Shown here piece by piece: positions 1 to 64,000 of a stretch of DNA of 64,000 nt; the stretch's first letter is position 1; each line of letters opens with the position of its first letter. The DNA lies in assembly GCA_040755535.1 (NCBI GenBank), contig JBFMAV010000012.1, forward strand, positions 15,002-79,001, in the 5' to 3' direction. The position numbers were made by a program, and so were the translations under genes. The stretch is from Pseudomonadota bacterium. Its GTDB lineage: Bacteria > Pseudomonadota > Alphaproteobacteria > Rhizobiales > Xanthobacteraceae. Under the pieces are notes generated by a model. It did not search any database, was not told where the DNA came from, and worked only from the letters and a program-made list of their open reading frames with translations.

Positions 1-665
1 AGGCGCGGCGCGCCGGCAAGCGCATCCTGTTCGAAGGCGCGCAGGGTTCGCTGCTGGACATCGACCACGGCACCTATCCCTATGTCACCTCCTCCAACAC
101 GGTGGCCGCTTCGGCGGCCAGCGGCGCGGGCGTCGGCCCGGCGGCACTGGACTATGTGCTCGGCATCACCAAGGCCTACACGACCCGCGTGGGCGAAGGT
201 CCCTTCCCGACCGAGTTGAAGGACGAGGTCGGTCGTCTACTGGGCGAGCGGGGCCGTGAATTCGGCGTGGTGACCGGTCGTCCGCGCCGCTGCGGCTGGT
301 TCGACGCGGTGCTGGTGCGCCAGACGGTGCGCACCTGCGGCATCCACGGCATCGCCCTCACGAAGCTCGATGTGCTGGACGGGTTCGACGAGATCAAGGT
401 CTGCGTCGGCTATCGCCTGGATGGTCGCGAGATCGACTATCTCCCCAGCGAGGGCGGGGCGCAGACTCGCCTTGAGCCGATCTATGAGATCATTCCCGGC
501 TGGCGGGAGTCCACGGCCGGGGCGCGCTCCTGGGCGGACCTGCCCGCCGGGGCCGTGAAATATGTGCGCTGGGTCGAGGAACTGATCGGCTGCCCGGTCG
601 CCGTCCTCTCCACCAGCCCGGAGCGCGACGACACCATCCTCGTTCACAATCCGTTCGAGAATTAA
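1..665 (+). CDS. purA: adenylosuccinate synthetase, C-terminal part (5' end lies outside the window)
   Basis: The frame is open from the window edge. Translation ...[26 protein letters not shown]...[17 protein letters not shown]...[10 protein letters not shown] matches PurA signature segments. Track ORF 102..665 begins at an internal GTG. Confidence 0.93.
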
Positions 666-701
666 CGTCCGCTTTTCCCTCTTGGAGCATCCTTTTCGCT
701 C

Positions 702-2219
702 ATGGCCGACTATTACCCGCTCTTGGTTCGCGCGATTTCGGGCCTCCCCCAAAACACCGGGGAGGCGCGCAAATCGGTGTATGACCGCGCGCGGGGCGCT
801 CTGCTGAAGCAACTGCGCAGCGTCGAGCCGCCGCTGCCCGAAGGCGAGATCCTGCGCGAACGCCAGTCGCTGGAAGACGCCATCCGGCGCGTCGAAGCCG
901 AACAGGCCCCGGACACGTCAGCAGCCGACGCAACCGAGACGGCCCCCAAGGCGCCCGCGACTCCGGAGCCGGAAAAGACTTCTCCCCCCCTGCCCCCGCT
1001 CCCGAAAGAGGGCGCGACGCGCACGCCGGCCGCGCGGCCGGACCCGCTCGCCGCCGCAAAGGCGCTCGCGGATAAGGCCATGGCCGCCCCGGTGGGCGTG
1101 CCTGCGCCTTCCCATCCGGGCAAGATCGACGTCACGAACACGGACATCGACACGTCCGAAAGAAGCAAATCGGACCCCGCGAACGCCGATCTCACCAAGC
1201 CACCCTCGGCCGACGAACCTGCATCGGCGCCATCCGCGCCCGCGACAGGCGATACGGACGATCTGGTGGACGAAGCCACCGTCACGCGCCCCGTGCTCGG
1301 GCGCGGCCGCGTGGCCGAGCGCCCGGAAAAGACCGACCGCCACGAGCGTCCGCGCCTCCCCGCAGAGAAGGCGGAAACCGGAAAGCCGCGTTGGCAGCGC
1401 ACGGTTCTGGTGGTTGGTCTCATTGCCCTGCTGATCGCGGGCGGCGCCTATGCGGTGGTCAATCGCGAGGCGCTGTTCGGCGGCGCACCGGCACCGGCCC
1501 AGACCGGGACCCCCGCGCCGGAACCCGAGGCGATGCGCCAGGAGCAGCCCAAGAATTCCGACCGCGTGACCCAGTCTGGCGTCGCACCTGCCCAGCGGCC
1601 AGCGGCCCCGGCGCCCCGCCAAGGTATGGGCACGCAGCGCGCCTATCTGTTCGAAGAAGCGGCCGGCGGCGCACAGGGCCTCCAGACCTATGAGGGCACC
1701 GTCACCTGGAAGACGGAAACCTTCAATGCCGGTCCCGGCCTGCCCCCCGACGTGGGCATCCGGGCCGATATTCAGATCCCCGGCCGGCTCGGCGTCGCCT
1801 TCACGCTGCGGCGCAACGCGGACTCGGCCCTGCCGGCCTCCCACACCATCGAGATCAGCTTCACACTGCCGCCTGATTTCGCCTATGGCGGCATCAGCAA
1901 TGTGCCCGGCATCCGCATGAAGCAGACCGAGAGCGCCCAGGGCGCGCCGATCGCCGGGCTCTCGGTACGGGTCAACCCCACCTATTTCCTGGTGGGCCTG
2001 TCGGCTGTGACCGCGGACAAGGACCGCAACCTCCAATTGCTGCAAAGCCGGCCTTGGATCGATATTCCCATCGTCTATACCAACAACAAGCGGGCGATCC
2101 TGGCCTTCGAAAAAGGCCCGGCGGGAGAACAGGCATTCCAGGATGCCTTTGCGGCCTGGGGTGAGCTGCTGCCGCAGCAGCCTCCGCCCATGTCCCCGGT
2201 GCCCCCCTCCGCCAATTGA
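702..2219 (+). CDS. hypothetical membrane-anchored protein with a Pro/Ala-rich linker
   Basis: 505-aa ORF starting at ATG 702. It has a helical N-terminal segment, a long P/A/E-rich low-complexity region, one TM helix (RTVLVVGLIALLIAGGAYAVV) and a C-terminal domain of about 230 aa. I recognise no family. Confidence 0.6.
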   Translation: MADYYPLLVRAISGLPQNTGEARKSVYDRARGALLKQLRSVEPPLPEGEILRERQSLEDAIRRVEAEQAPDTSAADATETAPKAPATPEPEKTSPPLPPLPKEGATRTPAARPDPLAAAKALADKAMAAPVGVPAPSHPGKIDVTNTDIDTSERSKSDPANADLTKPPSADEPASAPSAPATGDTDDLVDEATVTRPVLGRGRVAERPEKTDRHERPRLPAEKAETGKPRWQRTVLVVGLIALLIAGGAYAVVNREALFGGAPAPAQTGTPAPEPEAMRQEQPKNSDRVTQSGVAPAQRPAAPAPRQGMGTQRAYLFEEAAGGAQGLQTYEGTVTWKTETFNAGPGLPPDVGIRADIQIPGRLGVAFTLRRNADSALPASHTIEISFTLPPDFAYGGISNVPGIRMKQTESAQGAPIAGLSVRVNPTYFLVGLSAVTADKDRNLQLLQSRPWIDIPIVYTNNKRAILAFEKGPAGEQAFQDAFAAWGELLPQQPPPMSPVPPSAN

Positions 2220-2228
2220 GGGCTGGCC

Positions 2229-4994
2229 TCAACCGGTCCTGCGCAGCGCCTTGAGGGCATAGAGCGCGTCGAGGGCGGCGCGCGGCGTCAATTCGTCGGG
2301 ATTGAGCGCATCCAATGCGATGGCCAGCCGGTCGTCCGCGTCCGGCCCGCCCACGGAGGGAGCCGGCGCGGGCGTCCGCATCACGGCCGCGAACAATGGC
2401 AGGTCGTCCACCAGCTTCTGGGCCGGCGACACGCGCTCCGCCGCCTCCAATTCCGCCAGAACCGCCTTGGCGCGGGCGATGACCGGGGCCGGCAATCCCG
2501 CGAGGCGCGCGACCTGGATGCCATAGGAGCGATCCGCCGCTCCGAGCACCACTTCGTGGAGGAAGACCACGTCTCCCTGCCATTCGGTGACCTTCACCGT
2601 GGCATTGACCAGCCGCGCGCAACGCTGGGACAACGCGGTCAGCTCATGGAAATGGGTGGCAAAGAGCGCCCGGCAGCGATTGACCTCATGGAGATGCTCC
2701 AGGCTCGCCCAGGCGATGGACATGCCGTCGAAGGTCGCCGTGCCACGCCCGATCTCGTCCAGGATGACCAGTGAACGCGGCGTCGCCTGGTTCAGGATGG
2801 CGGCAGTCTCCACCATCTCCACCATGAAAGTGGAGCGCCCGCGCGCCAGATCGTCCGCCGCCCCGACTCGGGAGAACAGGCGGTCCACCACGCCGAGCCG
2901 CGCGGCGCGTGCCGGCACGAAGCAACCCGCCTGCGCCAGAACCGCGATCAAGGCGTTCTGGCGCAGAAACGTGGACTTGCCGGCCATGTTGGGGCCGGTG
3001 AGCAGCCACACCTTGCCGCCCTCCGCCCCTTCGGGTGCCGAGAGGTCGCAATCATTGGCGACGAAAGGATCCTTGGCGCGGGCCAGCGCCTGCTCCACCA
3101 CCGGGTGGCGCCCGCCTTCCACGGCGAAATCCAGGCCATCGGTCATGTGCGGGCGTACATGGCGCTCGTCCACCGCGAGCCGCGCGAGACCGGCATGCAC
3201 GTCCAGTTCCGCGAGCGCCTCGGCGGCGGCCCGGATCGGCTCGGCCTCGGCCACCACCTCGCCCGCGAGGCGATCAAACAGCGCCTGCTCGATAGCCAAT
3301 GCCCGTTCGCCGGCGGAGGCGATGCGGCTCTCCAGGTCCGCCAATTCCTGGCTGGTGAAGCGCACCGCCCCGGCGAGGGTCTGGCGATGGGTGAAGGTGG
3401 CAAGATGTGGCGGCTCGCGCAGCTTCTCGGCATGCTGCGCCGTTACTTCGACGAAATAGCCGAGGACCGCATTGTGGCGGATCTTGAGGGACTTGATCCC
3501 GGTCTCGTCGACATAGCGGCGCTCCAGCGCGGCCACGACGCGGCGGCTTTCATCTCGGAATGCGCGGGTCGCGTCGAGATCGGCATCATAGCCGGCGCGA
3601 ATGAACCCGCCGTCCCGGCGCAGATGGGGCGGCTCATCCACCAGGGCGCTGATGAGGTCCCCTGCCAGCCGGGGCTGGACCGCGCGCAGCGCACGCGCGC
3701 AGGCGGAAAGACGCTCCGGCGCATCCTCGGGCAGGCCGACCGCCAAAGCGGCGCCCTCTTCGAGCCCCTGGCCGATGGCCAGAAGGTCGCGCGGAGACCC
3801 ACGCTGGAGCGACAGACGCGACAACGCGCGGGCAAGATCGGGCGCGCCCGACAAATGGCGGCGGATGGCGGAAGTACGCTCGGGATCGTCCGCCAGAAAG
3901 GCAACGGCGTCGTGCCGCGCGCGGATCGCGTCGAGATCGGTCAGCGGCTCGGACAGGCGCCGGGCGAGCAAGCGGGCACCGGCGGCGGTCACGGTGCGAT
4001 CCACGCTCGCCAGCAGCGAGCCGCGCCGGTCGCCCGACGTGGTGCGCACCAGTTCCAGATTGGCGCGGGTGCCCGCATCGATCAGCATGGCGCCGCCGTC
4101 CGCCGTGCGGCTCGGAGGAGCAAGGGCGGGCCGCGCGCCCAATTGGGTGCGCTCCACATAAGCGACGATGGCGGCGGCGGCGATCAATTCGGCTCGGCTG
4201 AAGGTGCCGAAGGCATCGAGCGTTGCGACCCGGAAGAAGTCCGCGAGGCGCTGCTCGGCGCCCGTGCCTTCAAATCCCTGGCGCGGCAATGGCGTGACGG
4301 CGGCTAGGCCCTGCCAGACCTCTTTGAGATCCGGATCGTCATAGAGCGCGTCGGAGAGCAGCACCTCGGCCGGATCCACGCGCGCAAGGTCTGCCGCGAG
4401 GGTCGCGCGGGTCGCGCTCGCCACGCGGAAGCTGCCGGTGGAGACGTCCGCGAAGGCGAGGCCATAGGCATGGCTGTCCTCGCCCGCGCGCACCCGCGCC
4501 ACCGCCAGCAGCACATTCTCACGCTTGGCATCCAGCAGCGCGTCTTCCGTCAGCGTGCCTGGGGTGACGAGGCGCGTGACATCGCGCCGGACCACGGCCT
4601 TGGCGCCGCGCTTGCGCGCCTCTGCGGGGTCTTCCAATTGCTCGCACACCGCCACGCGGAAGCCGAGGGCGATGAGCTTGTGGAGATATTCCTCGGCGCG
4701 CGAGATCGGCACCCCGCACATGGGGATGTCCTCGCCCAGATGCTTGCCCCGTTTGGTGAGGACGATGCCCAGCGCCTGGGATGCCTGTTCGGCATCCTCG
4801 AAGAACAGCTCGTAGAAATCCCCCATGCGGTAGAACAGAAGGCAGTCCGGATTGGCGGCCTTGATCTCCACATATTGGGCCATGACCGGCGTCACATGCC
4901 CGCGCGCGGCCGCATCCTGTCCGGCGGCGGGTGCAAGGACGGGGGGAGCGTCCTCTTTGTCGAGGGCGGCGGCGGGTTCGGACACGGAAGCCAT
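2229..4994 (-). CDS. mutS: DNA mismatch repair protein MutS
   Basis: 921 aa. Contains the N-terminal block [31 protein letters not shown], Walker [21 protein letters not shown] and LDEIGRGT. Confidence 0.97.
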
Positions 4995-5205: not shown

Positions 5206-5328
5206 TCTCAGAGTTGGTGGCTAGGGTTCCGGCATCGCCCAAGGGGCGGTGCGCTGGTCCGAGAGCTGCCGCCGGTCCGGGGAGACATCCGGCCGGACGC
5301 ACGGCGGGACAAAAGCCCGGGAGACCTC
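5206..5328 (+). promoter_or_regulatory. guanidine-I (ykkC subtype 1) riboswitch aptamer
   Basis: The invariant blocks occur in the correct order: CTAGGGTTCCGG (5221-5232), GGTCCGAGAG (5256-5265) and ACGGCGGGACAAAAGCCCGGGAGA (5301-5324). It lies in the non-coding 5' leader of an ABC/carboxylase operon, which is the classical genomic context. Confidence 0.9.
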
Positions 5329-7318: not shown

Positions 7319-8127
7319 CCGCCATTTCCGTCTCCCATGTCTGGAAGGAATATGGCGACCAGATCGTGCTGGAGAACATCTCCCTTGATTTCGCGCCGCG
7401 CTCCTTCGTGGCGCTGGTGGGGCCGTCCGGGTGCGGCAAGACCACCTTCCTGCGCATGCTCCTGTCGGAGGAGCAGCCGACGCGCGGCCAGATCCTGGTG
7501 GATGGGCGCCCGCTCGCCCGCGAGCCGGGGCCCGACCGGGGCGTGGTGTTCCAACGTTATTCCGTGTTTCCGCATCTGACCGTCCTCGGCAATGTGATGC
7601 TGGCCGCGGAACTCCCCAAGGCGCCCTTCACCGGGCGTCTGTTCGGAGCTGGCCGGCGGCAGGCGCAGGAGGAGGCGCGGGCGCTCATCGCGGAAGTGGG
7701 ACTTGCCGGGAGCGAGGACAAATATCCCGCCGCTCTTTCCGGCGGCATGCAGCAGCGCCTCGCGCTCGCCCAGGCCGTGATGCGCAAGCCCAAGATCCTG
7801 CTGCTGGACGAGCCGTTCGGCGCCCTCGATCCCGGCATTCGCGCCGACATCCACGTGCTCATGAAGCGGCTGTGGAACGAGTGCGAGATGAGCGTGGTCA
7901 TGGTGACCCATGACCTCAAGGAAGCCTTCACGCTCGCCACCCGCGTCATCGCGTTCGAGCGCCGCCGCACGGGCGATGACCGCGCGCGCTTCGGCGCGGT
8001 GGTGGCGCGCGACATCGAGGTCTGGCCGCGCCGCGTGGCGGGCCAGCCCGCCCCTCTTGCGGACCGGGACGACCCGGCGCCCGCTTCGGACACCGGCCGG
8101 GACGACCCGGCGCCGTTTCCTCGCTGA
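7315..8127 (+). CDS. ABC transporter ATP-binding protein
   Basis: Walker A GPSGCGKTT, signature LSGGMQQR, Walker B LLLDEPFGALD. Its ATG overlaps the permease stop (ATGA). Confidence 0.92.
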   Translation: MTAISVSHVWKEYGDQIVLENISLDFAPRSFVALVGPSGCGKTTFLRMLLSEEQPTRGQILVDGRPLAREPGPDRGVVFQRYSVFPHLTVLGNVMLAAELPKAPFTGRLFGAGRRQAQEEARALIAEVGLAGSEDKYPAALSGGMQQRLALAQAVMRKPKILLLDEPFGALDPGIRADIHVLMKRLWNECEMSVVMVTHDLKEAFTLATRVIAFERRRTGDDRARFGAVVARDIEVWPRRVAGQPAPLADRDDPAPASDTGRDDPAPFPR

Positions 8128-25271: not shown

Positions 25272-25544
25272 ATGACCAGATCTTACGCTGATCGCTCCCG
25301 CTCCGGCGGGGTTCCAGACACTGCCGGCACTGACCTTCCCCATACGGACCCGCGAGATGATGCGCGGGTGATGGGCGACCCGCGCGCCTTCGCGCCGCGA
25401 CTTCCCTCATTCGATTCGCGCGACCGCGCCTCAACGCCCCGATCTCTCCCGGACCAATCGGGATGGCACCTCTGGGGCATGATGGTGGGTTTCATGGCCG
25501 CGGGCGCGGCCATCCTCATCATCCTCTCTCTCAAAGGCGCTTAG
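25272..25544 (+). CDS. small tail-anchored membrane protein, hypothetical
   Basis: ATG 25272 is preceded by AAGGAG at a 6-nt spacing. The 90-aa product has a charged, probably disordered N-terminus and a single extreme C-terminal TM helix (LWGMMVGFMAAGAAILIILSL). I recognise no family. Confidence 0.5.
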   Translation: MTRSYADRSRSGGVPDTAGTDLPHTDPRDDARVMGDPRAFAPRLPSFDSRDRASTPRSLPDQSGWHLWGMMVGFMAAGAAILIILSLKGA

Positions 25545-25590
25545 AGACCGATTCACCGATCAGATTGAATCACCCCGATCGGTGAAACGG
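25544..25590. repeat. copy 1 of a short dispersed repeat (GATTCACC ... TTGAATCACCC) with an internal inverted repeat
   Basis: 25544-25582 matches 49329-49367 at 32 of 39 positions. CCGATTCACCGATC (25548-25561) and GATCGGTGAAACGG (25577-25590) form a 14-bp stem with one mismatch. The copy carries two GANTC sites. Confidence 0.6.
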
Positions 25591-25653
25591 ACTTCATCCG
25601 GGGTGGGTGAACGCGCTCACTTGTATCAGAATGAGACGCGCCCGGCGGAGGTG

Positions 25654-25688
25654 GAACACGCCGCGAACCAAACGCGCGCGAATCGCGC
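25654..25688. promoter_or_regulatory. module 1: GAAC-N7-GAAC box plus G/C hairpin with a GAATC apex
   Basis: GAACacgccgcGAAC at 25654-25668, then 7 nt, then GCGCG-AAT-CGCGC at 25676-25688. Confidence 0.55.
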
Positions 25689-25759
25689 TGGCCTGAAGCG
25701 CCCGAATGTTCGCCTTACGGTCCATTGTCCCAGAGTGAGACCAAGGCGGTCCCGCGCGT

Positions 25760-25795
25760 GAACGCCCCAGGAACAAAAGACGCGCGAATCGCGCG
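25760..25795. promoter_or_regulatory. module 2: GAAC-N7-GAAC box plus G/C hairpin with a GAATC apex
   Basis: GAACgccccagGAAC at 25760-25774, then 6 nt, then CGCGCG-AAT-CGCGCG at 25781-25795. On the minus strand the hairpin is followed by UCUUUUGUU. Confidence 0.55.
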
Positions 25796-25859
25796 CCGGG
25801 CATTTCTCGTGCTTTGTTCTTCCGCGTGCCGTCTCGGGACGACACGCCGCGCGAAAGGA

Positions 25860-25895
25860 GAACCGGGGGCGAACGAAGCGGGACCGAATCGGTCC
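25860..25895. promoter_or_regulatory. module 3: GAAC-N7-GAAC box plus G/C hairpin with a GAATC apex
   Basis: GAACcgggggcGAAC at 25860-25874, then 6 nt, then GGACCG-AAT-CGGTCC at 25881-25895. The stem co-varies relative to modules 1 and 2. Confidence 0.55.
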
Positions 25896-25936
25896 ATGCG
25901 CGGCTTTCTCCCTTTGTCCTTCTCTGAACGGCCCGC

Positions 25937-26131
25937 TCAGCGTCCCATGGCGAAGATGGTCACCATGATCAGCACGATGGCGACGAACTGAAGCAGCACG
26001 CGCCATTGCATGAGTTTTTGCGACCGCTGGGGCGAGCCGCCCGTCGCGAGATTCATGAGGCCGAGGAAGAGAACGCCGGCAACCGCCGCCAATGCGAGCG
26101 GGATCAGCAGATAAATAGACCAGGACACCAT
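25937..26131 (-). CDS. twin transmembrane helix small protein (HIG1-domain family)
   Basis: 64 aa starting at ATG 26131: MVSWSIYLLIPLALAAVAGVLFLGLMNLATGG...KLMQWRVLLQFVAIVLIMVTIFAMGR. This is the typical alphaproteobacterial HIG1-like pattern. The track ORF extension was rejected. Confidence 0.8.
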   Translation of the reverse strand: MVSWSIYLLIPLALAAVAGVLFLGLMNLATGGSPQRSQKLMQWRVLLQFVAIVLIMVTIFAMGR

Positions 26132-26162
26132 GAGCGCACACTCGGCCGCCGCTGGGGCGCCG

Positions 26163-26669
26163 TCAATTGAGGAACAGGATCGCCCCGTTGAGCGAGGCGG
26201 CATAAAGCAGCCAGGGCAGATAGGGCACGAGCAGCCATCCCGCCGTCGCGTCCGCCTTGAAGGCGGCGTGCACCGTGGCCGCGACCAATAGGATGAGCAG
26301 CAGGATCACGAAGAAGCCCGCACCCACCGCATGCAGACCGAAGAAGATGGGCGACCAGGCGGCATTGACCACCAGTTGCGCCAGGAACAGGCCGATGGCC
26401 CGGCTGCGCGCAGGGCTCTCGTCCGCCCGGTCCCACAGCCGCCACAAGGCGATCGCCATGAAGGCGTAGAGCGTCGTCCAGACCAAGGGAAAGGCGACAT
26501 TGGGCGGCGTCCAGGCCGGTTTCTGCAAACCGGCATACCAGCCGGGAATCGCCGGATAGGTGGCGAGCGCGCCGAGCGCGCTCACACCCGCCAGAAGGCC
26601 CCCGCACACGGCAAGGCGCAGGAGGGCGATCGCGAGCGTCTGTCTCGGTTTCATAAGATTGGATGTCAT
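26163..26669 (-). CDS. tspO: tryptophan-rich sensory protein TspO/MBR family
   Basis: 168 aa with 5 TM helices. Blocks LQKPAWTPPNVAFPLVWTTLY and WSPIFFGLH. Confidence 0.92.
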   Translation of the reverse strand: MTSNLMKPRQTLAIALLRLAVCGGLLAGVSALGALATYPAIPGWYAGLQKPAWTPPNVAFPLVWTTLYAFMAIALWRLWDRADESPARSRAIGLFLAQLVVNAAWSPIFFGLHAVGAGFFVILLLILLVAATVHAAFKADATAGWLLVPYLPWLLYAASLNGAILFLN

Positions 26670-62007: not shown

Positions 62008-64000
62008 TCAAGCCCCCTCCCACGCCGCCCGCAGCGCCTCTGGCTCGGTCACCGGCAAGGAACAGCGCCCTTCGCGGCAGACGAAGGCCGCCCCGCCCTC
62101 CGGGGCGGCCTCCGCCTGGGCGCGGGCCAGGCTGTTTGCCGGCACATCATCCGCCGTCCCCGCGCGCACCACCACCCGGTCGAGGAAGGGCAGCGCGAGC
62201 GCGGCGGCGGCGAACCGCTCTGGCTGCGGTCCCACCGCCACGATCTCCACCAGGGCCTGGCGGGTCATGAGCGCATTGAGCGTCGCGCCATGGGCGATGG
62301 CGTTCTTGGCGGCGGCGGGCGAGATGGCGGAAAGGATGCGGTCCGCCCGCGCGCGCAGATCCTCGCGCCCGGTGAGCGCCGCGAGCCGCACCAGGGCATC
62401 GGCCGCGACCGCCTGATAATTGGGAAGCGCCTCATCCATGGTGGAGAGCGGTCGCACCACCAGGGCCTCGGCATCATCGGCAGTGAGATAATAGGCGCCG
62501 CTGTGCGGGTCCGCATAATGGCGCTCCAGCGCCTCCAGGAAGCCTTCCGCCTTGGCCAGATAGCACCGCTCTCCCGTGGCCTCGTGCAGCGCGAGCGCGG
62601 CGCGGGCCATGGCGGCCTGGTCGCTGGCAAGGCCGGGAAACACCTTCTTGCCCGCCCGCCAGGAATGGGCGAGGCGCCCCTCCTGCTCCATCAGGCGGCA
62701 GACGGCGGCAAAGGCGCGTGCGCCCATTCCCACCCAGTCCGGCTCTTCGAGATAGGAGCCCGCGCGGGCGAGCGCCGCGATCATCAGCCCGTTCCAGTCG
62801 GCCAGAATCTTGTCGTCGAGGCCGGGACGCACCCGGCGGGCACGGGCGGCGAGCAGTTTTTCCCGCAGCGCGACGAGGCGCGCCTCGTCCTCAGGCTCCA
62901 CGTCTCCCGCCTTGGTGCGGTTGAGGATGACCGCGCCTTCCCAGTTGCCGCCGTCGCTCACATCATAGAAGCGGCCGAAGAAGGCGGCGTCCGCGGCGCC
63001 CAGTTCCGCCTCGATCTCGCGCTTGGTCCAGACATAGAAGCGTCCCTCGTGGCCTTCGCTGTCGGCATCAAGCGAAGCGGAAAAGGCGCCCTCGCCCGTC
63101 ACCATCTCCCGCTGAAGCCAGCCCACCGTCTCGCACGCCCGCGCCAGGAACAGGGGATCGCCGGTGTCCCCATAGGCGAGCGCCAGCAATTCCAGCAGCT
63201 GTGCATTGTCGTAAAGCATCTTCTCGAAATGCGGCACCAGCCAGACTTCATCCACGCTGTAGCGCGAGAAGCCGCCGCCGAGATGGTCATAGATGCCGCC
63301 CTCGCACATGCGGTTCAGCGTGAAGGCGGCGGTCGCCCGCAAGCCCTCGTCGCCGGTGCGCGCGCCCGTGCGCCACATGAGTTCGAGCAGGCCACACTGG
63401 GGAAATTTCGGCGCGCCGCGCAGGCCGCCATGGGCGCGGTCGAACAAGCCGGCGATCTGGTCGGCCGCCCGGTCGAGATCTTTGAGCGCGATCACCACCT
63501 CGCCCTGCGGGCGGGCGGCCTCTTCCAGGCGGCTGATGAGGGCCTCACGGTTCTGGCGGATTTTGTCCGGGCTCTCGCGATAAACCTCGGCCACCTGCTG
63601 GAGCACCTGGACGAAGCCCGGCCGGCCATAGCTGGCGGTCTTGGGAAAATAGGTGCCGCCCCAGAAGGGGGCGCCCTCGGAATCGAGGAACATGGTGAGC
63701 GGCCAGCCGCCCGCCTCCCCCAGATGATAGAGCGCGCCCATATAGATCTGGTCGACGTCCGGGCGTTCCTCTCGGTCGACCTTGATGTTCACGAACAGTT
63801 CGTTCATGAGGCCGGCGACGAACGGGTCCTCGAAGCTCTCATGGGCCATGACATGGCACCAGTGGCAGGCGGCATAGCCCACGCTGAGCAAAACGGGCTT
63901 GCCCGTGCGGCGGGCCTCGGCGAACGCCTCCGGCCCCCAGGGCCACCAATGGACAGGGTTGTCCTGGTGCTGGAGGAGATAGGGGCTCGTCTCGGCCGAC
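62008..64000 (-). CDS. thioredoxin-domain protein YyaL (DUF255 + six-hairpin glycosidase-like domain); the start lies just beyond the window
   Basis: The frame stays open to the window end. The translation there reads ...[54 protein letters not shown]. The track ORF starts at an internal TTG. Confidence 0.9.

Follow-up and report, generated by a model that had tools for sequence, protein, structure and literature searches.

Tandem sibling small RNAs (sRNAs) are found in Alphaproteobacteria, among them AbcR1/2 and the CcsR1-4 ('cuckoo') array of Rhodobacter, which derives from a 3' untranslated region (UTR). The published LexA box of the same class of bacteria is GTTC-N7-GTTC. Here we describe three tandem modules, each with a perfect match to this box, in a 64-kb window (the whole stretch of DNA that was analysed, 64,000 nt of contig JBFMAV010000012.1 from a bacterium of the Xanthobacteraceae). 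Judged by sequence comparison, the modules are copies of a non-coding element that is widely conserved among rhizobia-like bacteria (Hyphomicrobiales) and has as yet no name, and they are more likely to be RNA modules of the minus strand than DNA-damage operators with methylatable hairpins. The latter had been proposed in a sequence-only reading of this DNA, which knew of no described element of the kind. This is true as far as Rfam shows, but the element is already visible, unnamed and uncharacterised as a family, in two published start-site atlases (PMC3616915, PMC4842269).

The modules occupy a 392-nt spacer flanked by convergent genes, a small membrane-protein open reading frame (ORF) downstream of lysA (25272-25544, plus strand) and HIG1 (from 25937, minus strand), downstream of tspO. 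The three boxes, their spacings of 106 and 100 nt and the palindromes GCGCG-AAT-CGCGC, CGCGCG-AAT-CGCGCG and GGACCG-AAT-CGGTCC were all confirmed in position, and the gap between box and CGAATCG is exactly 10 nt in every module. In order to score the boxes, we built a LexA matrix from 32 Caulobacter boxes validated by chromatin immunoprecipitation (ChIP), all of them with N7. The principal features are the following.

25654-25668, plus strand: box 1, GAAC-N7-GAAC (GTTC-N7-GTTC on the minus strand); LexA matrix score 10.9 bits.
25760-25774, plus strand: box 2, GAAC-N7-GAAC; 10.1 bits.
25860-25874, plus strand: box 3, GAAC-N7-GAAC; 4.0 bits; the second tetramer of this module is missing in three relatives.
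25679-25685, no strand assigned: core of module 1, CGAATCG/CGATTCG (containing GANTC), invariant in the aligned modules; its extended G/C palindrome (25676-25688) is specific to the window.
25785-25791, no strand assigned: core of module 2, CGAATCG, invariant; its palindrome (25781-25795) and a minus-strand T-run were scored as terminator-like.
25885-25891, no strand assigned: core of module 3, CGAATCG, invariant; palindrome 25881-25895.
25937-26669, minus strand: tspO-HIG1 (tspO 26163-26669, HIG1 25937 to about 26131), both with Pfam matches; gene order kept in relatives.

The boxes exceed chance: five were counted in the window against 1.01 +/- 1.00 expected, and none of 100 dinucleotide shuffles reached five. 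The remaining two (642-656 and 63787-63801) are situated within long ORFs and look accidental. About 20 nt separate the HIG1 stop codon from the start of the array, which lies on the same strand, and no convincing terminator was found between the two. For this reason the array most likely belongs to the tspO-HIG1 transcript or is read from weak internal starts.

The neighbourhood (tspO, HIG1, spacer, small ORF, lysA) was traced into other genomes through TspO homologues. The syntenic contigs come from a clade around Aquabacter that is rich in metagenome-assembled genomes and includes Aquabacter cavernae (locus L085, array at 3735-4037). Five relatives, with a TspO identity of 71-85%, retain all three modules, and two more distant ones retain two. 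The aligned spacers are about 60% identical overall, the sequence between the motifs varying freely. What is invariant, read on the minus strand, is GAAC(A/G)AA(G), 25 nt, GATTCGG, about 10 nt, GTTC(C), N6-8 and GTTCC, followed after about 17 nt by GTCNC-N5-GNGAC. The distance of 29 nt from the GAAC block to GATTC is fixed in most modules. This pattern supports the earlier suggestion that selection acts on the tetramers, the GANTC core and their spacing, and that the array is not a recent duplication. On the minus strand, the window copies and their accessory blocks read as follows.

25855-25924, minus strand: module 3, nearest HIG1; GGACAAAG, 25 nt, GATTCGG, GTTC-N7-GTTC; matched by the module profile hidden Markov model (HMM) at 25924-25855 (E 4.8e-12) and by the family HMM at 25916-25870.
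25757-25823, minus strand: module 2, middle; GAACAAAG, 25 nt, GATTCG, GTTCC-N6-GTTC; matched by the module HMM, and by the family HMM at 25819-25722 (E 5e-4).
25649-25723, minus strand: module 1, last on this strand; GAACATTC, 23 nt, GATTCG, GTTC-N7-GTTCC; matched by the module HMM, and by the family HMM at 25686-25606 (E 7.7e-5).
25812-25819, minus strand: GAAC block of module 2, GAACAAAG; its complement is the plus-strand tract CTTTGTTC.
25912-25919 (GGACAAAG) and 25708-25711 (GAAC), minus strand: counterparts of this block in modules 3 and 1.
25826-25843, with copies at 25726-25742 and 25620-25639, no strand assigned: inter-module motif GTCNC-N5-GNGAC, found between modules in all relatives and matching the family block GTCGCATTGTGATACAG; the copy at 25620-25639 reads GTCTCATTCTGATACAAG on the minus strand.

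Two details of the sequence-only reading take on another meaning in this light. The imperfect inverted box at 25708-25722 is real; read as its reverse complement, on the minus strand, it is a fourth conserved block, GAAC(A/G)AA(G), separated from GATTC by 25 nt. The CU-rich tracts of the plus strand are real as well, but they are the complement of that conserved minus-strand block, and the seed role proposed for them is not supported.

The same alignments bear on the idea that the array is a tandem duplication in local decay, or a dispersed repeat of the repetitive extragenic palindromic (REP) or miniature inverted-repeat transposable element (MITE) type, without specific function. Tandem units of 100-106 nt between convergent genes would suit it, this being a frequent location of REP sequences. 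However, further module copies were found neither in the 64-kb window nor in 80 other Hyphomicrobiales loci, modules and invariant motifs are kept at the orthologous position despite about 40% divergence, and Tandem Repeats Finder reported nothing, which indicates that the copies are old. This explanation is already largely refuted, and we regard it as highly improbable. A genome scan based on lysA returned 80 loci, of which the closest (Xanthobacter, Aquabacter sediminis) had neither the tspO-HIG1 neighbourhood nor the motif; an exact-protein look-up with LysA gave no match.

A coding function was also considered. A 60-amino-acid ORF of the minus strand (25715-25897) and an apparent 'RFGP..F' peptide were rejected because the 100- and 106-nt spacings shift the frame, the invariant runs lack third-position variation, and there is no Pfam match.

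The element extends well beyond this clade. When metagenomes were scanned with the pattern GAAC-N21-26-CGATTCG-N10-GTTC-N7-GTTC, at least 120 loci matched; among the matches listed, the loci share far more sequence than the search pattern required. The consensus reads, roughly, ATCTNGTG, about 21 nt, CANATGTCGCGGTGAACGAA, then CGAGTCAGCGATTCGGGCGCGATTCGTTCCAGACTCGTTCC, CTTAAG and GCGTCGCATTGTGATACAG. Family members measure up to about 190 bp, the units of the window clade 100 nt, and the invariant blocks 7-8 nt. Nearly all listed copies have a DUF3108 gene on one side and a Suv3-like helicase gene (PF22527; mgpS) on the other, share the orientation of the helicase, and come as one to three copies in tandem (three in L094, L175 and the Rhizobium plasmid locus L212). 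Window-type modules precede the same kind of helicase gene in L207. In L106, the element stands ahead of an HlyD-MFS (major facilitator superfamily) operon and also between convergent genes, so that it is not tied to one gene. A profile made only from the metagenome family loci matched the window at the three modules, each time on the minus strand, and had no further hit in the 64 kb. Neither the window nor its syntenic loci contain a helicase gene of this kind or a DUF3108 gene. A search with the helicase protein returned fragments only and did not reach the helicase locus of the window's clade; a plasmid search with a Bradyrhizobium-type copy gave no match.

The family alignments further show four GANTC sites in the core (GAGTC, GATTC, GATTC, GACTC), of which the last three start 11 bp apart and the first is 8 bp ahead of the second. 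The core includes an 11-bp tandem repeat, GA(T/C)TCGTTCCA. Direct repeats with an 11-bp period are typical of winged-helix regulators. The modules might thus hold phased sites for a response regulator of the OmpR/PhoB type, or for another DNA-binding protein, and the near-perfect repeat GATTCGTTCCA / GACTCGTTCCA is what this proposal can draw upon. The window-type modules, however, keep only GTTC(C), their spacing varies in 9 of 19 cases, and neither a candidate regulator nor a matching published motif was found. We consider such sites quite improbable.

Several family loci showed further particulars. The two copies in L106 (2930-3050 and 6213-6300) are 3.2 kb apart and each is followed by GGGACATCATG; copy 1 runs into the HlyD-family gene, and copy 2 follows the MFS gene and faces a convergent M81 peptidase gene. 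The pair looks as if the element had been duplicated along with the first codons of the gene. On the 489-kb plasmid p3 of Rhizobium sp. NLR16a (L212, 3096-3593), phbA and phbB are accompanied by three tandem copies, the helicase-related gene and a gene with an S4 domain, so that a secondary replicon can house the entire locus. A gene for a small S4-domain RNA-binding protein lies 3' of the helicase gene in the annotated loci L211, L212 and Bradyrhizobium japonicum USDA 110, in the last of which it is annotated hslR and forms one predicted operon with mgpS. The S4-domain protein is a candidate partner of the conserved RNA element. The contig of L178, which also bears the element, has an Rfam match to '5_ureB_sRNA' (432-717, plus strand, 100.5 bits), probably unrelated to it.

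Published start-site maps cover the element in two species. In Sinorhizobium meliloti, it lies in a 690-nt spacer between phbB and the helicase gene (on a 3.7-Mb record deposited as 'pSymB', probably the chromosome). In strain 1021, the start SMc_TSS10208 was assigned to SMc_sRNA_357 (3545233-3545333), with a predicted promoter made of GTTGAA, the 18-nt spacer ATCTATATATAGCCGTGA and ACATAA (Schlueter et al. 2013, PMC3616915). Placed on the sequence, this start is 16 nt before GATTC, and hence CGATTCG and both GTTCC motifs are transcribed; the GAAC block falls within the predicted -10 region. In B. japonicum USDA 110, three minus-strand starts were mapped between bll0161 and mgpS (bll0159), the gene ahead of hslR (Cuklina et al. 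2016, PMC4842269). Bja_TSS_163 comes directly after the first family block 'ccaTCTAGTGcaat', Bja_TSS_161 directly after the second GTTCC, its upstream 60 nt ending in 'gagtcaGCGAttcggccgcgattcgtTCTAGAGTcgttcc', and Bja_TSS_160 about 66 nt beyond Bja_TSS_161. The 91 nt from Bja_TSS_163 to Bja_TSS_161 fit the family geometry, as compared with L165. All three starts are on the sense strand upstream of mgpS. In Bradyrhizobium, transcription along the motif strand thus covers the whole element. Among the ideas of the sequence-only reading, that of tandem small RNAs has gained most support.

We therefore favour, at about even chances, the reading that the 3' region of tspO-HIG1 holds a transcribed non-coding module in three sibling copies, whose invariant motifs act as RNA or protein-recognition sequences. 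Transcription of the array would run along the minus strand, either within the 3' part of the tspO-HIG1 transcript or beginning at weak internal starts, and its products would be one to three short RNAs or a single repetitive 3' UTR. Each copy would present GAAC(R)AA, CGAUUCGG, one or two (U)CGUUCC motifs and GUCNC-N5-GNGAC at fixed distances. These motifs would serve as linear recognition sequences for a protein or a complementary RNA, not as a folded structure. The apparent LexA box would then be a duplicated CGUUCC motif, and the GANTC apex the core of CGAUUCGG.

A number of observations weigh against such an RNA module. The transcript maps come from S. meliloti and B. japonicum, not from the window organism, and the window-type modules have neither the first family block nor the -10-like spacer. 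The 'sRNA' label of SMc_sRNA_357 says only that over 300 nt separate the start from the next gene, and the length of 101 nt is that of a read contig (PMC3616915); the RNA could equally be a long leader of the helicase gene. In B. japonicum, one start is at the 3' edge of the GTTC-N7-GTTCC box, and the core from GATTC to GTTCC acts as a promoter, with the -10-like hexamer TAGAGT in the N7 spacer. No conserved terminator was called in the family copies. No covariation was found in the 19 window-type modules or in 54 non-redundant family members, over all column pairs, and the paired fractions of stacks of at least four pairs equalled those expected from column composition. Lastly, constant spacer length combined with free spacer sequence is a more usual mark of protein-DNA sites than of RNA.

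Folding was analysed on the same two alignments. RNAalifold gave a consensus energy of about 0 for both. Pairing of GAACGAA with TTCGTTC met 10 A-C mismatches and no compensation. The window spacer itself folds better on the minus strand (z score -1.69) than on the plus strand (-0.29), which speaks for the RNA reading. The palindrome around CGATTCG has 6-7 bp in the three window modules, 3-4 bp in the 16 orthologous modules and 3-5 bp in the 54 family members. A six-pair stem laid on the 19-module alignment gave 54.4% paired cells against 53.2% in shuffles, and 182 of 500 shuffles scored as high; only two pairs within the invariant core are kept, the outer stem pairs being unpaired in 10 to 16 of the 19 modules. 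The hairpin of the sequence-only reading is thus not supported as a conserved feature. The architecture it had described is preserved, at the orthologous locus and in a large family elsewhere, as a set of motifs but not as a G/C hairpin. The extended G/C palindrome is specific to the lineage of the window. All three window palindromes have been lengthened, with differing sequences, and no relative shows this lengthening; extension of all three by chance is unlikely.

These stems may nevertheless have a secondary, local use. A terminator scan called minus-strand terminator-like sites at modules 1 and 2 (6 sites found versus 0.9 expected), and the palindromes could be intrinsic terminators for tspO-HIG1, possibly bidirectional ones that also serve the small ORF and lysA, the rest of each module being an inherited relic. 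The position between convergent genes is fitting, and 6-7 bp in all three modules against 3-4 bp in 16 relatives suggests a lineage-specific gain. Because the extended stem is absent from relatives, however, the calls rest on a feature of this lineage, and so does the earlier claim of minus-strand terminators. The module next to HIG1, module 3, has the stem but a poor U-tract (CGCUUCGUUCG). Two of the three stems are near-identical and perhaps not independent, which may reflect gene conversion. The invariance of the other motifs, in the relatives and in the wider family, is left unexplained. As an account of the whole array, we judge termination unlikely; as a lineage-specific role of the extended palindromes, it may coexist with an RNA or a DNA function of the modules.

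Known families and motifs did not account for the element. Rfam returned nothing on it at gathering thresholds, nor at E values up to 10 in the window region and 1 or 0.1 at related loci; ARAGORN likewise reported nothing on it. EcpR1 was rejected as belonging to another locus (divK-pleD). The motifs of sigma-70, of extracytoplasmic function factors (ECF/EcfG, GGAAC-N16-17-CGTT), of sigma-54 and of RpoH were compared by eye and did not fit the conserved spacing; the same was found for the DnaA box, parS, CtrA, NrdR, RegR and DriD, whose site was checked in the literature. A literature search by sequence strings of the element gave no match.

The main rival to an RNA module is a composite site acting at the DNA level, bound by LexA, by CcrM/GcrA or by another protein. 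LexA would bind GTTC-N7-GTTC and CcrM would methylate GANTC, perhaps for reading by GcrA, which would gate a promoter by DNA damage and cell cycle. The window copies would then be SOS-controlled promoters for short transcripts, or a LexA sink. The match to the published consensus is exact, and no aligned module departs from GAATC, which has the sequence of a CcrM site (GANTC). On the LexA matrix, the family consensus box (GTTCCAGACTCGTTC) reaches 15.6 bits, inside the range of the validated Caulobacter boxes (14.6-26.0 bits). Against this, the window boxes (4.0-10.9 bits) lie under every validated one, and their spacers behave like random GC-rich sequence on the matrix (mean -5.5 bits). The matrix may transfer poorly between species: the presumed lexA operator of L112, a box with a GC-rich spacer 20 nt ahead of the lexA gene, also scores 10.9 bits, which speaks for the composite site. 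N7 is found in 32 of the 32 validated boxes, versus 10 of the 19 orthologous modules, the other nine having N6, N8 or no second tetramer.

Position separates the two kinds of copy. The homologous box of B. japonicum occupies positions -16 to -1 relative to Bja_TSS_161 and holds the -10-like hexamer, which is the classical place of an operator; LexA control of the helicase promoter is for this reason plausible in Bradyrhizobium-type copies. The window spacers have no -10-like hexamer, and no gene lies downstream of the boxes on either strand, so that LexA control of the window copies is poorly supported. The claim of a LexA operator thus has the consensus match in its favour and is weakened by score, spacing and the lack of a downstream gene. 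The Suv3-like helicase is not mentioned in the LexA-regulon texts searched (the Caulobacter study with its supplements and a multi-chromosome comparative study); the only helicases in the Caulobacter tables are CCNA_02121, grouped with a DNA ligase-associated gene, and uvrD. The GAAC(R)AA and CGATTCGG blocks, which are no less invariant, are beyond what LexA can explain.

A fixed spacing free of covariation would suit recognition of DNA by protein and, with the promoter geometry in Bradyrhizobium, sustains the composite site as the main rival. The four family GANTC sites, the last three of them 11 bp apart, presumably resemble the extended motif reported for GcrA-activated promoters. Involvement of LexA and CcrM at the window modules is possible. 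On balance, we hold a composite DNA site to be unlikely as the explanation of the window array, somewhat less so than termination.

RNA and DNA functions could also be layered. Across Hyphomicrobiales, the DNA of the RNA module would bear a LexA box over its start and phased CcrM/GcrA sites, and riboregulators linked to MgpS would stay blocked until DNA damage had occurred and a defined cell-cycle stage was reached; the triple array of the window would be a helicase-freed copy acting in trans. This dual-layer switch is a speculation to which we attach a low probability.

Some observations concern the genes that border the spacer and the rest of the window. The 90-amino-acid ORF after lysA (25272-25544, plus strand) is a real conserved gene without a Pfam family; six relatives share its C-terminal segment WHLWGMMVGFMAAGAAILIILSLKG unchanged and vary in the N-terminal part. 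Directly 3' of its stop codon is an inverted repeat (25545-25593, 24-nt arms, 79% complementary), within a stretch of about 60-80 nt that is absent from relatives. This repeat may serve as a bidirectional terminator; alternatively, it may form the 3' end of an RNA begun after the last module. The HIG1 ORF as listed (25937-26203, minus strand, 88 amino acids) overlaps the tspO stop codon. In relatives, the protein has 63-64 amino acids, with one exception among the gene calls (76 amino acids, L082), and the true start is probably the ATG at 26131 (MVSWSIYLL...). Two riboswitches elsewhere in the window exceed the Rfam gathering score, guanidine-I (ykkC) at 5210-5325 (plus strand, 74.8 bits) and guanidine-II (mini-ykkC) at 8061-8110 (plus strand, 41.1 bits).

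What looked like an isolated oddity is thus part of a family that stands beside a Suv3-like helicase gene in many rhizobia and relatives, outside Rfam, and the mapped starts of S. meliloti and B. japonicum offer a tractable entry point to it. The family raises the question of which factors regulate the poorly understood bacterial Suv3-like helicase or are regulated by it, and whether the perfect LexA-box and GANTC matches of the element reflect genuine SOS and cell-cycle inputs or follow as a by-product from RNA motifs. It also calls for caution in motif-based regulon prediction, as three perfect consensus boxes within 240 bp can belong to a different conserved element.

We finally compared the window array with known systems. 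All three modules match the LexA operator consensus exactly, but they differ from LexA operators in their GC-rich spacers, scores below the validated range, unconserved spacing, lack of a regulated gene, and the larger set of invariant motifs around the box. With CcrM/GcrA promoters they share an invariant GANTC per module; the family has four, and in B. japonicum a GATTC is found near position -30 relative to a mapped start, whereas the window modules have one GANTC each, a predicted methylation site. From tandem sibling sRNAs such as AbcR1/2 and CcsR1-4 the window array differs in its CGUUCC and CGAUUCGG motifs, which stand in place of CCUCCUCCC, and in having neither an Rfam match nor conserved stem-loops that present the motifs. 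It resembles them in being made of homologous head-to-tail units of about 100 nt, 3' of a small protein gene and on its strand, each unit bearing repeated short pyrimidine-rich motifs. The copies at SMc_sRNA_357 and at Bja_TSS_160, 161 and 163 differ by their place upstream of a Suv3-like helicase gene and by extra blocks (ATCTNGTG, CTTAAG, more GANTC sites), those of the window being shorter (100-nt units), three in number, and downstream of tspO-HIG1 with no helicase nearby. Both sets of copies have in common the GAAC block, CGATTCG, GTTCC-N6/7-GTTCC, the spacing of these motifs and the strand relative to them.

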